DNA from: a phage
DNA length: 40,794 bases
Direction: 5' to 3' (one strand)
Sequence record: PZ683264.1
The translations under genes and the position numbers were made by a program. The first letter of the stretch is position 1. The number at the start of each line of letters is the position of its first letter. The notes beneath the pieces are model-generated. The model did not search any database, was not told the origin of the DNA, and saw only the letters and a list, made by a program, of their open reading frames with translations. This document shows positions 16,423 through 21,700 of this stretch, piece by piece.

Positions 16423-16448
16423 AGGGACCGAAAGGTCCCTTTTTATTT
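16423..16448. terminator. Bidirectional rho-independent terminator between convergent gene 24 and rnlB
   Basis: agggacc-gaaa-ggtccct hairpin flanked by T-runs on both strands. Confidence 0.75.
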
Positions 16449-17451
16449 AACTTACCAATTCAATCCAAGCCGGACGAAGTACATCTTGTACCATTTTAAC
16501 TAATTCCTTTTTAATCAAAGAAGGATTATCCGCTTGAGTTAGAGTAATACCTTCACGAGAAGTTTCTTCCAAAATATCTTGAACAGTTAGTCCCATCACC
16601 TTTCCAAAATCCTTCGGACCAATTTCGCCAATTTTAGAAATAACGTTATTTACCCGGTTCAGTGTAACGTAGCAAGCTAAAATTCCCAGCAATTTATTAT
16701 CAGCTTCTGACAGCTCAACTTTAGCTTTAATAGGCTTATCAGACTTTTTCTTTTCGCTAAATTTAGAGTTCTTGCATTTAATAGCTACACGATTGCCATT
16801 AGGCATCCAAGAAGGATAACAAGGTTTCAATACATAACCTTCAGCGGTAAATACTTCGCCTTTTGCTTCAGCTTTCCAAACACATTTGTTAGCGTCAACT
16901 AATCCAGCATGGTCTACTGTAAAATTATAATCTTGGACGACAGAATCTAAATCATTTGGCAATTTAATAAGCTCTTCAAATTTACCGCGACCTAAAAGTG
17001 GAGCCATTTTAAATTTAAATGTATTACAGAATGATTCCATCATATAATCATCGACATAAGTCACATCACCACTTTCGGTAGTAACAATAATGTCAAATAC
17101 ATAAAAATCTTTATCACCATAATCGACATTCTTCTGAATGCCAGGTCCAGCAAATTCGCCAAAGACTTGATAAGATACAACTGCCGAAGTTTCCATAATA
17201 TCTTGTACTGCTTTAATGGAATCAGCGTAATTCTTTAGAATAATTTCATACCCAAAGAAATCTTCAGCAGGAAGAATAGGACCAGTACGTTTAGCGCAAG
17301 TTACTTTATCGCGCTCAATAATCAACGAGAAATTTGTACCATGAATCTTTTCACGAGCTACCCACTCCCCACCAGTCAATCCCAAGCTATAAAGTTTTTC
17401 AACAAATTTAGAGTTGTAATGATTTTCAAGACTGCTATACTTTTTAAACAT
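16447..17451 (-). CDS. rnlB: RNA ligase 2
   Basis: 334 aa; nucleotidyltransferase motif I KIHGTN near the N-terminus; position after gene 24. Confidence 0.85.
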
Positions 17452-17460
17452 AATTAATCC

Positions 17461-17739
17461 TCAAAATGTAATTTCTAACCAATCACCATCACGCTGATCA
17501 CTATTGACTTTAAAGCTGAATCCTTCTTTTCTCAGCCAATCACCAATTTCTTCAGTAATCAATTTATCACGAGCAATACAATAATAATTAAAATGTGTTT
17601 TACCTTGTTCAGCTGCTTTATTAGCAAGTTCCGAAAAATCTTTAATAAAACACTCTAGCTTAAACTGTTTACTTTTTAATGCTTTTTCGCGCAATTGATT
17701 AGCAAAAGATTCATTTTCATAAAGATCATACTGTTCCAT
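17461..17739 (-). CDS. Hypothetical protein (positional equivalent of T4 24.2)
   Basis: 92 aa ORF with ATG start between rnlB and hoc. Confidence 0.6.
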   Translation of the reverse strand: MEQYDLYENESFANQLREKALKSKQFKLECFIKDFSELANKAAEQGKTHFNYYCIARDKLITEEIGDWLRKEGFSFKVNSDQRDGDWLEITF

Positions 17740-17941
17740 TTTTCACCTTTTTATTGATATGTCTTTTTCTATAGACAACTTTTTCTCGAGTTTCAAATTT
17801 ATTCTTAGCAGTCATAGCTCGAGCCCATAATACAGCCACTTCTTTTGCCTGTAAGTTCAATTCACGAGCAATTTCAATGAATGACTTTCCAGACTCATGA
17901 AGAGTAAACACCACAACCTCAGTTCTCATAATCAATCTCAT
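17726..17941 (-). CDS. Hypothetical protein (positional equivalent of T4 24.3), possible helix-turn-helix
   Basis: 71 aa ORF, ATG start, overlaps the downstream ORF by 14 nt. Confidence 0.55.
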   Translation of the reverse strand: MRLIMRTEVVVFTLHESGKSFIEIARELNLQAKEVAVLWARAMTAKNKFETREKVVYRKRHINKKVKNGTV

Positions 17942-18029: not shown

Positions 18030-19448
18030 TTATGGATAGATATAGATGATACCAGTTTCTAAAGCAGTTTTATGAATGATGTATCCATTGCGCGATTCTT
18101 GAACATCAACTTCTGGATAGTCTTTCATCATCTTCTGAAGAGTGTAACGGTGCAAGTAGTACTTACTATCTGGGTCGTCAGTTTTCCAATCTTTACCTTC
18201 TTCAGTCATTTTTTGGATTTCATCCATAACCCACCAACCACACCAGATGTAAGCTGAAGTACGATGTGGAAGAGGATGAACATAAGGTAATTCACCTTCT
18301 GGTTCTGGAGCAACTTTATCAGTTACCTGAACTTGACCTTCTGCTGTGATAGTTTTGCTATCATAATCAGTAGCGGTAACAGTTGCAGTAACTTCAATAG
18401 TTTGACTTCCAATAGATGATGTATCAACGGTGTATACATTAGTTGACCCTTCTACAGGAGAAGAATCTTTCTTCCATGAATACGTAATTTGTGCTTCTTC
18501 CGGAGCATCCGTAACGTTAGCAGTAAATGTAGCCGAAGCATCTTGCTGAACATTAATAGAAGGAGGAGTCAATGTAACCTGTGGATTCATTGTCTTCTTA
18601 TTAACCGTTAATGATACTTCATTAGAAGTAACTTCCTTTTCATTATAATTTTCTGCAGTTACTTGGGCTACGCATTTAATTCTTTTTACTCCACTTGTAG
18701 TTGGAGTATAGTTAAATGTAGAGTTAGTTTCTCCACTAATTTGAGAATCATCTACATACCATTGATATGTAGCAGACGCTCCATCAGGTTGAGAAGCTAA
18801 GGCAGCAGTAAATTGAACCGGGGTTCCAATTACTCCAGCAGCAGGACTATCAGGAGTTACTGCCAAGGTAGTTGTCTGCGTCTTTTTATTAACAGTCAGT
18901 GACACTTCATTAGAAGTAACTTCCTTTGCATCATAATCTGTCGCGGTTACTTGAGCCACACACTTAATTGTTTTAACTCCGCTTGTGGTAGGAGTGTAAT
19001 TGAATGTAGCAGAAGTTGCTTCGCCCACAGGAGAACCGTCAACGTGCCATTGATACGTGGCAGATGCGCCTGATGGCTGCGAAGCCAAAGCAGCGGTAAA
19101 TTCAACAGCTGTTCCGATTACTCCTTCCGGAGGACTATTAGGAGTTACGGCTAAGGTAGTCGTCTGTGTCTTATTTTGAACTGTGATAGTTGTACTAATT
19201 TCAGCTGTTTCGGGACTACTATCGGCAACTTGATTTGTTGCAACTACTTTAATAGTCTTTTGACCGGCAGGTCCTTTTAATACATAACTAAAAGTTGCTT
19301 CAGCTCCATCTTGTGGAACATCATCTACAGTCCAAGCATAGGTAATAGGTCCATCTCCAGTTTGACCACTGGGCGTAGCAGTAAACTGCTTAGTCTCATC
19401 TATAACTCCAGTAGGTGTTTTAGGAGTTATATCAACTGTAAAAGCCAT
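18030..19448 (-). CDS. hoc: Head outer capsid protein Hoc with an extra tandem Ig-like module
   Basis: 472 aa; conserved capsid-binding C-terminus (...YIWCGWWVMDEIQKMTEEGKDWK...); four Ig-like modules, two of them near-identical in tandem. Confidence 0.9.
   Translation of the reverse strand: MAFTVDITPKTPTGVIDETKQFTATPSGQTGDGPITYAWTVDDVPQDGAEATFSYVLKGPAGQKTIKVVATNQVADSSPETAEISTTITVQNKTQTTTLAVTPNSPPEGVIGTAVEFTAALASQPSGASATYQWHVDGSPVGEATSATFNYTPTTSGVKTIKCVAQVTATDYDAKEVTSNEVSLTVNKKTQTTTLAVTPDSPAAGVIGTPVQFTAALASQPDGASATYQWYVDDSQISGETNSTFNYTPTTSGVKRIKCVAQVTAENYNEKEVTSNEVSLTVNKKTMNPQVTLTPPSINVQQDASATFTANVTDAPEEAQITYSWKKDSSPVEGSTNVYTVDTSSIGSQTIEVTATVTATDYDSKTITAEGQVQVTDKVAPEPEGELPYVHPLPHRTSAYIWCGWWVMDEIQKMTEEGKDWKTDDPDSKYYLHRYTLQKMMKDYPEVDVQESRNGYIIHKTALETGIIYIYP
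18591..19166 (-). repeat. Tandem direct repeat of two ~288-bp units inside hoc, each encoding an Ig-like module
   Basis: Hoc residues 95-190 and 191-286 both run QTTTLAVTP...SNEVSLTVNKKT at about 83% identity; matching DNA visible at 18879-19166 and 18591-18878. Confidence 0.8.
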
Positions 19449-19457
19449 AAGTTATCC

Positions 19458-20138
19458 TTATTTTAATGTTACGAAAGAAGAATTGCGTGTTTCACGAATT
19501 AGAACTGATCCATCACGATTAATGTAGTAAATTAAGCTAAATAAAGTTTGGTGTGCTGACGCGTGTTCAAAACTAGTTGGGTGAGATTTCCAATCCGGAG
19601 TTTCAGCAATCCACTGGTAAATCCACCAAGGAACAGTGCAGAATCCTGGATTTTTTCCAATCAGCTGAAGATTCGGACTAAAGTTTTCCGGAAGAGTAAA
19701 TACAGACGGCTTTTCAGATTCAATAATCTCAGCTACAGCCTGTTCGAATTTTTCTTCAACAAAAGGAGTATCTTCAATCAAAACATCGGTATTTTCAGGA
19801 ATTTTATCCGTTTCTACTACTTCAATTTTAATGTCAGATTTAACCGGAGAATCAATCAGAAGTGCAGCCTCTGGATTGACTTCTTCATCGTCATATTTTA
19901 ATCCATCTGCAGCATCAGCAGCATCTATTAAGTCTTTAATAGATAACCCATCAGTCTCTGGCATAGGTTCACTAGCGAGCTTCTGGAGGGCTTCTTCAAT
20001 ATCAACAACGATATTATCAAAAGATTTATTCTTTTTGACCTTTATACCAAACTGTTCAGCATATTCAGCTAATTTAGCTTTAGCTTCTTTATTATCATCA
20101 AGAGCCTTCAGCTCTGCAATATAATCTTTATCTATCAT
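19458..20138 (-). CDS. inh: Inh, inhibitor of prohead protease (hoc.1)
   Basis: 226 aa, acidic; position between hoc and uvsW. Confidence 0.75.
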   Translation of the reverse strand: MIDKDYIAELKALDDNKEAKAKLAEYAEQFGIKVKKNKSFDNIVVDIEEALQKLASEPMPETDGLSIKDLIDAADAADGLKYDDEEVNPEAALLIDSPVKSDIKIEVVETDKIPENTDVLIEDTPFVEEKFEQAVAEIIESEKPSVFTLPENFSPNLQLIGKNPGFCTVPWWIYQWIAETPDWKSHPTSFEHASAHQTLFSLIYYINRDGSVLIRETRNSSFVTLK

Positions 20139-20151
20139 AATATTTCCTCAG

Positions 20152-20159
20152 TATAAATA
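20152..20159 (+). promoter_or_regulatory. Late promoter core TATAAATA upstream of uvsW
   Basis: Exact TATAAATA about 30 nt upstream of the uvsW ATG. Confidence 0.6.
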
Positions 20160-20188
20160 TAGATATATTTATTACATGGTATTTAGAC

Positions 20189-21700
20189 ATGACTGACATT
20201 AAAGTACATTTTTATGATTTTAGTCACGTGAGAATTGATTGTGAAGAAAGTACATTTCATGAACTCCGTGATTTCTTTTCGTTTGAGGCAGATGGATATA
20301 GATTTAATCCTCGCTTCAGATATGGCAACTGGGATGGACGAATCCGTCTTTTAGATTATAATCGACTTCTTCCATTTGGATTAGTCGGGCAAATTAAAAA
20401 GTTCTGTGATAACTTTGGCTATAAAGCCTGGATTGACCCGCAAATTAACGAAAAAGAAGAATTATCAAGAAAAGATTTTGATGAATGGCTTTCTAAATTA
20501 GAAATCTATTCAGGAAATAAAAGAATTGAACCGCACTGGTATCAAAAAGATGCAGTGTTCGAAGGATTAGTTAATCGTCGTAGAATTCTTAATCTTCCAA
20601 CATCTGCAGGTAAATCTTTAATTCAAGCTTTGCTTGCGCGATATTATTTGGAAAATTATGAAGGTAAAATTCTTATCATTGTTCCAACAACTGCTCTAAC
20701 AACTCAGATGGCTGATGACTTTGTTGACTATCGTTTATTCAGTCATGCAATGATAAAGAAAATCGGCGGTGGAGCATCAAAAGATGATAAATATAAAAAT
20801 GATGCACCAGTCGTTGTTGGTACATGGCAAACTGTAGTAAAACAACCAAAAGAATGGTTCTCACAGTTTGGAATGATGATGAATGATGAATGTCATCTTG
20901 CTACAGGAAAAAGTATTTCATCTATCATATCAGGTTTAAATAACTGCATGTTTAAATTTGGTTTGTCCGGTTCATTGCGTGATGGCAAAGCTAATATCAT
21001 GCAGTATGTTGGAATGTTTGGTGAAATATTTAAGCCAGTAACGACTTCTAAATTAATGGAAGATGGGCAAGTAACTGAGTTAAAAATTAATAGTATTTTT
21101 CTTCGCTATCCCGATGAGTTCACTACTAAATTAAAGGGAAAAACTTACCAAGAAGAAATAAAAATTATTACTGGGCTCAGTAAAAGAAATAAATGGATCG
21201 CTAAATTAGCTATTAAGCTTGCGCAAAAAGATGAAAACGCTTTTGTCATGTTTAAACACGTATCACACGGTAAAGCTATTTTCGATTTAATTAAAAATGA
21301 ATACGATAAAGTTTATTACGTATCAGGGGAAGTTGATACCGAAACCCGCAATATAATGAAAACCTTAGCTGAAAACGGTAAAGGAATAATTATAGTAGCG
21401 AGTTATGGTGTATTTTCTACTGGTATTTCAGTTAAAAATCTGCATCATGTTGTTTTAGCGCACGGTGTTAAATCAAAAATTATTGTATTACAAACAATCG
21501 GTCGTGTATTACGTAAGCATGGTTCTAAAACAATCGCAACAGTCTGGGATCTCATAGATGACGCGGGCGTCAAGCCAAAATCTGCTAATACGAAAAAGAA
21601 ATATGTTCATTTGAACTATCTTTTAAAACACGGCATTGATCGTATTCAGCGCTACGCAGATGAAAAATTCAATTACGTAATGAAAACAGTTAATTTATAA
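20189..21700 (+). CDS. uvsW: UvsW DNA/RNA helicase (SF2)
   Basis: 503 aa; Walker A LPTSAGKS and DECH box (MMNDECHLATG). Confidence 0.9.
   Translation: MTDIKVHFYDFSHVRIDCEESTFHELRDFFSFEADGYRFNPRFRYGNWDGRIRLLDYNRLLPFGLVGQIKKFCDNFGYKAWIDPQINEKEELSRKDFDEWLSKLEIYSGNKRIEPHWYQKDAVFEGLVNRRRILNLPTSAGKSLIQALLARYYLENYEGKILIIVPTTALTTQMADDFVDYRLFSHAMIKKIGGGASKDDKYKNDAPVVVGTWQTVVKQPKEWFSQFGMMMNDECHLATGKSISSIISGLNNCMFKFGLSGSLRDGKANIMQYVGMFGEIFKPVTTSKLMEDGQVTELKINSIFLRYPDEFTTKLKGKTYQEEIKIITGLSKRNKWIAKLAIKLAQKDENAFVMFKHVSHGKAIFDLIKNEYDKVYYVSGEVDTETRNIMKTLAENGKGIIIVASYGVFSTGISVKNLHHVVLAHGVKSKIIVLQTIGRVLRKHGSKTIATVWDLIDDAGVKPKSANTKKKYVHLNYLLKHGIDRIQRYADEKFNYVMKTVNL

Follow-up and report, generated by a model that had tools for sequence, protein, structure and literature searches.

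The hoc gene of the phage segment analysed here (40,794 nucleotides, referred to as the window) very probably represents a common allele class that carries two old module types, alpha and beta, in a fixed order and with a copy number that is altered by recombination. The protein is arranged as a first Ig-like module, an alpha module (copy A), a beta module (copy B), an Ig-like module of the domain 3 type (D3) and a capsid-binding domain. The allele is new; the class to which it belongs is common, has already been deposited and annotated, and is not peculiar to this phage.

The window is a segment of a Tequatrovirus (T4-type phage), with approximately 97% nucleotide identity over 20 kb to vB_EcoM_ECO78, Pu-Krd-SF5, vB_EcoM_112 and RB27. 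On sequence grounds the ORF under study is assigned to hoc by its near-identity to T4 Hoc and by the gene order uvsW–inh–hoc–24.3–24.2–rnlB, both of which uphold the name that the preliminary description had given to the gene. ORF lengths and order in this region match the annotation of phages vB_Eco_T-01, RB27 and SH7, and the window hoc has full-length nucleotide identity of 93–96% with many deposited hoc genes of 1419 nt. Direct reading of the start region showed a ribosome-binding site, AAGGA, located 8 nt 5' of the ATG. The features of the locus are collected in Table 1.

Table 1. Position of hoc, its modules and the neighbouring ORFs in the window
Feature	Coordinates	Strand	Basis and remarks
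hoc CDS	18030..19448	minus	472 aa + stop; phmmer vs T4 Hoc 5vf3_Z, E 1.5e-218
Ig-like module 1, aa 1-94	19167..19448	minus	aligns with T4 Hoc residues 1-94 (domain 1); predicted beta-sandwich, pLDDT ~87-94
Copy A, alpha module, aa 95-190	18879..19166	minus	module that T4 is without; NEVSLT at aa 180-185; 78.5% nt identity vs T4 domain 2
Copy B, beta module, aa 191-286	18591..18878	minus	orthologous to T4 domain 2 (residues 95-190); NEVSLT at aa 276-281
Fourth Ig-like module, aa 287-376	18321..18590	minus	aligns with T4 residues 191-280 (domain 3); Pfam Ig_3 and I-set at aa 289-373; confidently predicted beta-sandwich
Linker and C-terminal capsid-binding domain, aa 377-472, + stop	18030..18320	minus	near-identical to T4 residues 281-376
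uvsW-length ORF, 1512 nt	20189-21700	plus	length and order vs annotated relatives
inh	19458-20138	minus	length and order vs annotated relatives
24.3	17726-17941	minus	length and order vs annotated relatives
24.2	17461-17739	minus	length and order vs annotated relatives
rnlB	16447-17451	minus	length and order vs annotated relatives

The surroundings of the gene yielded some further observations. The gap between inh and the uvsW-length ORF is 50 nt (20139–20188), as it is in vB_Eco_T-01, SH7 and RB27. A homing endonuclease gene of 618 nt adjoins inh in T4 (locus L024, 1–479) and in phiC600P9 (locus L033, 1–479); as inh and the uvsW-length ORF are just 50 nt apart, the window is without this gene. 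The window contains 15 exact matches to the T4 late-promoter motif TATAAATA, compared with 5.4 expected, and none of 100 shuffles gave as many. One of the matches lies at 20152–20159 on the plus strand, just 5' of the uvsW-length ORF; the whole-window scan returned no exact match directly upstream of inh–hoc on the minus strand. An Rfam scan of the window gave no match.

Within hoc, Tandem Repeats Finder reported a repeat with a period of 288 nt and 2.0 copies (18592–19172, score 701), and a second repeat search returned the intervals 18592–18879 and 18880–19167 with 76% identity and a spacing of exactly 288. Set in codon register, the two units are copies A and B as delimited in Table 1, in exact agreement with the repeat (18591–19166; residues 95–190 and 191–286) described previously; the length of 472 amino acids reported for Hoc is likewise confirmed by the ORF, while the amino acid identity of about 83% between the units had been set too high, the measured value being 79.2% (76 of 96 residues). 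At the nucleotide level the copies agree at 220 of 288 positions (76.4%), and the probability of this many in-register matches arising by chance at the observed base composition is approximately 8e-72. The remaining 68 positions are distributed over the first, second and third codon positions as 14, 10 and 44, with 35 of the codon changes synonymous and 20 non-synonymous, and the longest run of identity between the copies is 24 nt. The ends of the unit are conserved, with QTTTLAVTP at the 5' end and VTSNEVSLTVNKKT at the 3' end.

Pfam matches in the window Hoc were to PKD, Ig_3, PKD_3 and I-set, and AlphaFold2, with an input alignment of 30 sequences of the 472-amino-acid class, predicted four beta-sandwich modules with a pLDDT of approximately 90 over residues 1–376 and a C-terminal domain of low confidence. 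Together these bear out the earlier reading of the protein as four Ig-like modules followed by the capsid-binding C-terminus. The best PDB matches found with Foldseek were strings of four Ig domains, namely Dscam1, ICAM-5 D1–D4 and Sidekick Ig1–4. Sixteen of the 20 amino acid differences between alpha and beta fall outside the predicted strands (Fisher p = 0.001), indicating that the two modules share a fold and present different loops.

The C-terminal domain was also used on its own (95 amino acids) as a query, and this retrieved 135 representatives at 50% identity in proteins of 70–1473 amino acids, in which the domain is nearly always C-terminal; the size range corresponds, by a rough estimate based on length, to between 0 and 15 N-terminal modules. 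At the tail of this domain the window Hoc ends in GIIYIYP, with an isoleucine at residue 470 (codon 18036–18038) where the 29 other aligned 472-amino-acid representatives have threonine; 13 other translated hoc genes end in GIIYTYP.

T4 Hoc (PDB 5vf3_Z) has 376 amino acids, and hoc in a T4 genome record is 1131 nt long. The difference from the window Hoc is exactly one 96-amino-acid unit, as the preliminary description had stated, and alignment of the two proteins showed that T4 Hoc has neither the same length nor the same number of modules. The two share the gene, the locus and a capsid-binding domain at the C-terminus; phmmer aligned T4 Hoc with window residues 1–106 and 189–472, with T4 residues 1–106 and 93–376 aligning almost identically, and T4 domain 2 has 91% nucleotide identity with copy B. 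What distinguishes the window Hoc is an extra alpha module of 96 amino acids (residues 95–190), which follows domain 1 and precedes the T4-type domain 2. In the RefSeq record of phage T2, NC_054931.1, two short ORFs of 354 and 426 nt (locus L030, 1357–1710 and 1788–2213), annotated as 'Hoc-like head decoration', take the place of a single hoc gene of 1131 nt; hoc seems to be disrupted there.

To place the two copies among their relatives, 170 domain-2-type modules from 120 homologous proteins and the window were clustered at 85% identity. Among the few groups that resulted, one took in virtually every first-position module along with roughly half of the sole modules from 376-amino-acid proteins; another held second-position modules and the remaining sole modules of 376-amino-acid proteins; and a third held the last-position modules of 568-amino-acid proteins. 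At the amino acid level, the sole module of one 376-amino-acid protein (P0118) matches copy A with 99% identity and that of another (P0089) matches copy B with 97%. A tree built from the DNA of 24 modules (14 hoc genes) gave an alpha clade, in which every first-position module was joined by the sole modules of SH7, KMB22 and IMGVR4, and a beta super-clade, in which the modules of T4 and RB51 stood with those at later positions. For copy A, nucleotide identity is 97% to the first module of vB_Eco_T-01 and 90–91% to the single modules found in SH7 and KMB22; the RB51 module is 96% identical to copy B. The same assignment was repeated by ten informative sites in the 14 genes, a small set, at which the first window module has the alpha state throughout and the second the beta state throughout. 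Protein residues strictly diagnostic of alpha or beta were also sought; three positions passed, too few for the detection of chimeras, and DNA was used instead. By these assignments the 376-amino-acid Hocs of T4 and RB51 are beta-only and those of SH7 and KMB22 are alpha-only, and the window Hoc belongs to the two-module class, with an alpha module followed by a beta module, both of the domain-2 type and 96 amino acids long. Given that single-copy Hocs carry either module type, the T4 form with three Ig-like modules may equally be a product of deletion.

Outside the modules, Hoc proteins are 97–100% identical in amino acid sequence between genes of different module content, whereas differences of as much as approximately 25% are seen among the modules; modules therefore move independently of their flanks. 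Several single-copy modules are mosaic, and in several directions: the T4 module is beta overall with an alpha-like stretch at nucleotides 193–264, and the sole module of KMB22 has an alpha core with a beta-like last 48 nt. This 3' end of the KMB22 module is suggestive of a deletion that may have occurred by crossover between an alpha and a beta module. The explanation that we favour, an old pair of module types whose copy number is changed by recombination, would run as follows. Alpha and beta separated before the sampled T-even hoc genes diverged from one another, and the T-even population has since carried arrays of one to four modules (376, 472, 568 and 664 amino acids). Copy number would shift through in-register unequal homologous recombination, and gene conversion would take place between modules and between co-infecting phages; the outcome would be alpha-only, beta-only and alpha-beta genes, longer arrays and mosaic modules. 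The proposed recombination is deduced from mosaic patterns in short windows.

With respect to how the two-copy gene first arose, ancient duplication with repeated loss and fusion of alpha-only with beta-only alleles both fit the data. In the latter case the one-copy state would be ancestral and the fusion would have occurred in a mixed infection, by illegitimate or short-homology unequal crossover. We regard this as possible although the less probable account; it concerns origin only, and on the present-day feature it agrees with the explanation favoured above. Alpha-only and beta-only genes of the 376-amino-acid type both exist and both are common, the near-identity of the flanks despite differing module content is in keeping with modules that shift independently, and direct reading of the ends of domain 1 (TITVQNKT) and domain 2 (SLTVNKKT) revealed a short shared motif which could mediate such a crossover. 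However, additional distinct types occur in fixed order in arrays of three and four copies, a pattern more simply explained by an old array, and the KMB22 alpha module has the beta-like 3' end that a deletion by alpha/beta crossover would leave; neither of these counterpoints is decisive.

The depth of the split between the copies was measured by the method of Nei and Gojobori, which gave a dS of 1.24, a dN of 0.124 and a dN/dS of 0.10 for copy A against copy B; both copies have been under purifying selection. Between the window and T4, dS was 0.25 for domain 1, 0.21 for copy B against T4 domain 2 and 0.33 for domain 3 with the C-terminus. The value between the copies is four to six times higher, and the A/B split therefore lies several-fold further back than the split between these two hoc genes.

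The clear homology of the window units, their tandem and in-frame arrangement and the single unit of the textbook reference T4 would be compatible with a recent duplication of domain 2 in the lineage of this phage followed by fast divergence of the copies. Such an event is nevertheless highly improbable, and we reject it on the dS values and on the module tree: the divergence is of a slow, purifying kind and several-fold deeper than that between the window and T4; copy A is 90–99% identical to modules elsewhere, single-copy phages included, and 76–79% identical to its own neighbour; and the order alpha then beta is common to the two-, three- and four-copy genes examined, with one outlier among 31. 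The two copies are also not each other's closest relatives, with 76% nucleotide identity between them compared with the 97% of copy A to the first module of vB_Eco_T-01 and the 96% of copy B to the RB51 module. More broadly, none of 47 adjacent-copy pairs from 39 multi-copy cluster representatives exceeded 85% amino acid identity (median 79%), so that no young duplications were seen. An assembly artefact, in which a single unit was mis-assembled as two, has next to no likelihood and is rejected even though tandem repeats are a known cause of assembly error, as 68 of 288 nucleotides differ with the reading frame kept and with a codon-position bias of the kind found in real coding divergence, and as the 1419-nt gene recurs at 93–96% identity in hundreds of independently sequenced phages, including RefSeq RB27. 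The preliminary description had argued for divergence after duplication rather than assembly error; this was right in so far as the copies are far too diverged for an assembly error, but a T4-like base state with a gain in this phage is unsupported given the dS values and the shared module clades.

Hoc proteins fall into length classes of 376, 472, 568–570 and 664 amino acids, corresponding to one, two, three and four modules. When GenBank phages were searched by BLAST with each copy separately, 617 records matched, with 891 and 893 module matches. Sixty records were drawn twice, independently and at even spacing, and the two samples contained 35, 23, 1 and 1 and 36, 22, 1 and 1 records with one, two, three and four modules respectively, i.e. 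two modules in approximately 38% and more in approximately 3%, these being counts of places matched by BLAST and not of parsed gene lengths. A scan of IMG/VR for relatives gave four close loci and 17 distant ones, and GenBank records were used instead. Copy number varies even between close relatives of the window (approximately 97% identity over 20 kb), with one module in phiC600P9 and two in RB27.

The 472-amino-acid class extends over Tequatrovirus and Mosigvirus (RB27, YP_009102382; Shigella phage A2; vB_Eco_T-01; moskry) and resembles the window in length, in alpha-beta order and in synteny, with whole-gene nucleotide identity of up to 95.7%; the RefSeq hoc of RB27 is likewise 1419 nt long, and the record for the Mosigvirus moskry annotates a repeat_region across both modules of its 472-amino-acid Hoc. 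The exact window protein was absent from a collection of 15 billion proteins; the nearest cluster representative was 95% identical. Longer T-even Hocs, of 568–570 amino acids in KMB26 and UGKSEcP1/2 and of 664 amino acids in slur03, are made of the same module family, head to tail in steps of 96 amino acids and with alpha first; beyond beta these have another one or two module types, whereas the window array stops at two.

Individual records illustrate the extent of this variation. The hoc gene of slur03 (locus L022, 1719–3713) has 1995 nt and encodes 664 amino acids, with four domain-2-type modules and six Ig-like domains; KMB26 has three modules; vB_EcoM_FJ1 (H147) gave four module matches; and ECML-123-2 (H146) gave three, with no annotated gene under the match. 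A full-length hoc of 1419 nt with 93.6% identity to that of the window is present at 18685–20103 of MG010123.1 (H27; 32,172 nt), deposited under the label of a Staphylococcus aureus phage ('Staphylococcus phage SAJK-IND'), and looks like mislabelled or contaminating T4-type sequence. At NCBI, a cluster of 472-amino-acid Hocs with 58 members (P0019) is named 'endonuclease [Shigella sonnei]', and several other Hoc clusters carry the product name 'PKD domain-containing protein' with Escherichia coli or Shigella given as the organism. These clusters filed under bacteria are T4-type phage contigs within bacterial assemblies, and at least one bears a wrong product name.

In T4, Hoc forms fibres of approximately 180 Å, 155 per capsid, with the C-terminal domain at the centre of the capsid hexamers; there is one molecule at the centre of each hexamer of the major capsid protein and the protein is dispensable for infection (PMC10385173). 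Hoc homologues are known as strings of a variable number of Ig-like domains, up to ten (Fokine et al., 2023; PMC10385173), and the 283-amino-acid Hoc of phage PNJ-9 is a variant without one domain (Fu et al., 2024; PMC11853027). These Hoc-like proteins follow the same principle as the window Hoc, a conserved C-terminal capsid anchor with a variable Ig-like string; they differ from it in that other modules are involved or that one has been lost. Our full-text literature search, the reach of which did not include Sathaliyawala et al. (2010), found no paper on the Tequatrovirus domain-2 array or on the 472-amino-acid class.

A comparable series was present in a distant T4-like lineage from IMG/VR, with Hocs approximately 50% identical to that of the window and lengths of 472 (L005), 471 (L006), 377 (L007 and L008) and 282 (L011) amino acids. 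In this lineage the extra module of the 472-amino-acid form is a duplicate of the domain-3 type (L005 by comparison with L008) and the 282-amino-acid form is without domain 2. BLASTP self-comparison of the distant 471- and 472-amino-acid Hocs detected no internal repeat; the domain-3 type is shown by the 377- and 282-amino-acid relatives and by direct reading. As this series is independent of the Tequatrovirus domain-2 array, module gain and loss are recurrent in the Hoc family.

By analogy with work on T4, the Ig-like string of the window Hoc would project outward from its C-terminal anchor as a four-Ig fibre approximately one Ig domain longer than the 18 nm or so of the T4 fibre, and the second domain-2 surface, with its different loops, would be available for weak binding of glycans or mucins. 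In PNJ-9, the S, L and T residues of an NEVSLT motif in domain 2 are required for binding to MUC2 (PMC11853027), and the presence of this motif in both window copies is a lead, at the level of sequence, for possible mucin binding. Published results on where mucin binds do not agree from phage to phage, however, as MUC2 is bound by domain 2 in PNJ-9 (PMC11853027) and by domain 1, not domain 2, in PNJ-6 (PMC11150434). The published functional studies of Hoc that we found used 376- or 283-amino-acid forms.

This gene class occurs in hundreds of public genomes, and variation among Hoc homologues in the number of Ig domains has been published; the question that remains is one at the population level, namely why several old module types persist in fixed order at one to four copies. 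We suggest, tentatively and as a rather doubtful proposal, that the domain-2 position is a long-lived cassette polymorphism with at least four old types in fixed order and at one to four copies, which might be selected through fibre length or loop repertoire for adherence to mucosal or particulate surfaces, with side-by-side persistence limited to strongly diverged copies and near-identical tandem copies being quickly deleted by the very active recombination of the phage; the 85% ceiling on identity between adjacent copies and the longest identical run of 24 nt in the window would fit this. T4 vaccine and vector platforms use Hoc as their display scaffold, the protein is a proposed mucus adhesin of T-even phages, and the longer fibre and loop-diverged second module present in about four of every ten sequenced relatives could affect adherence, antigenicity and the geometry of display.
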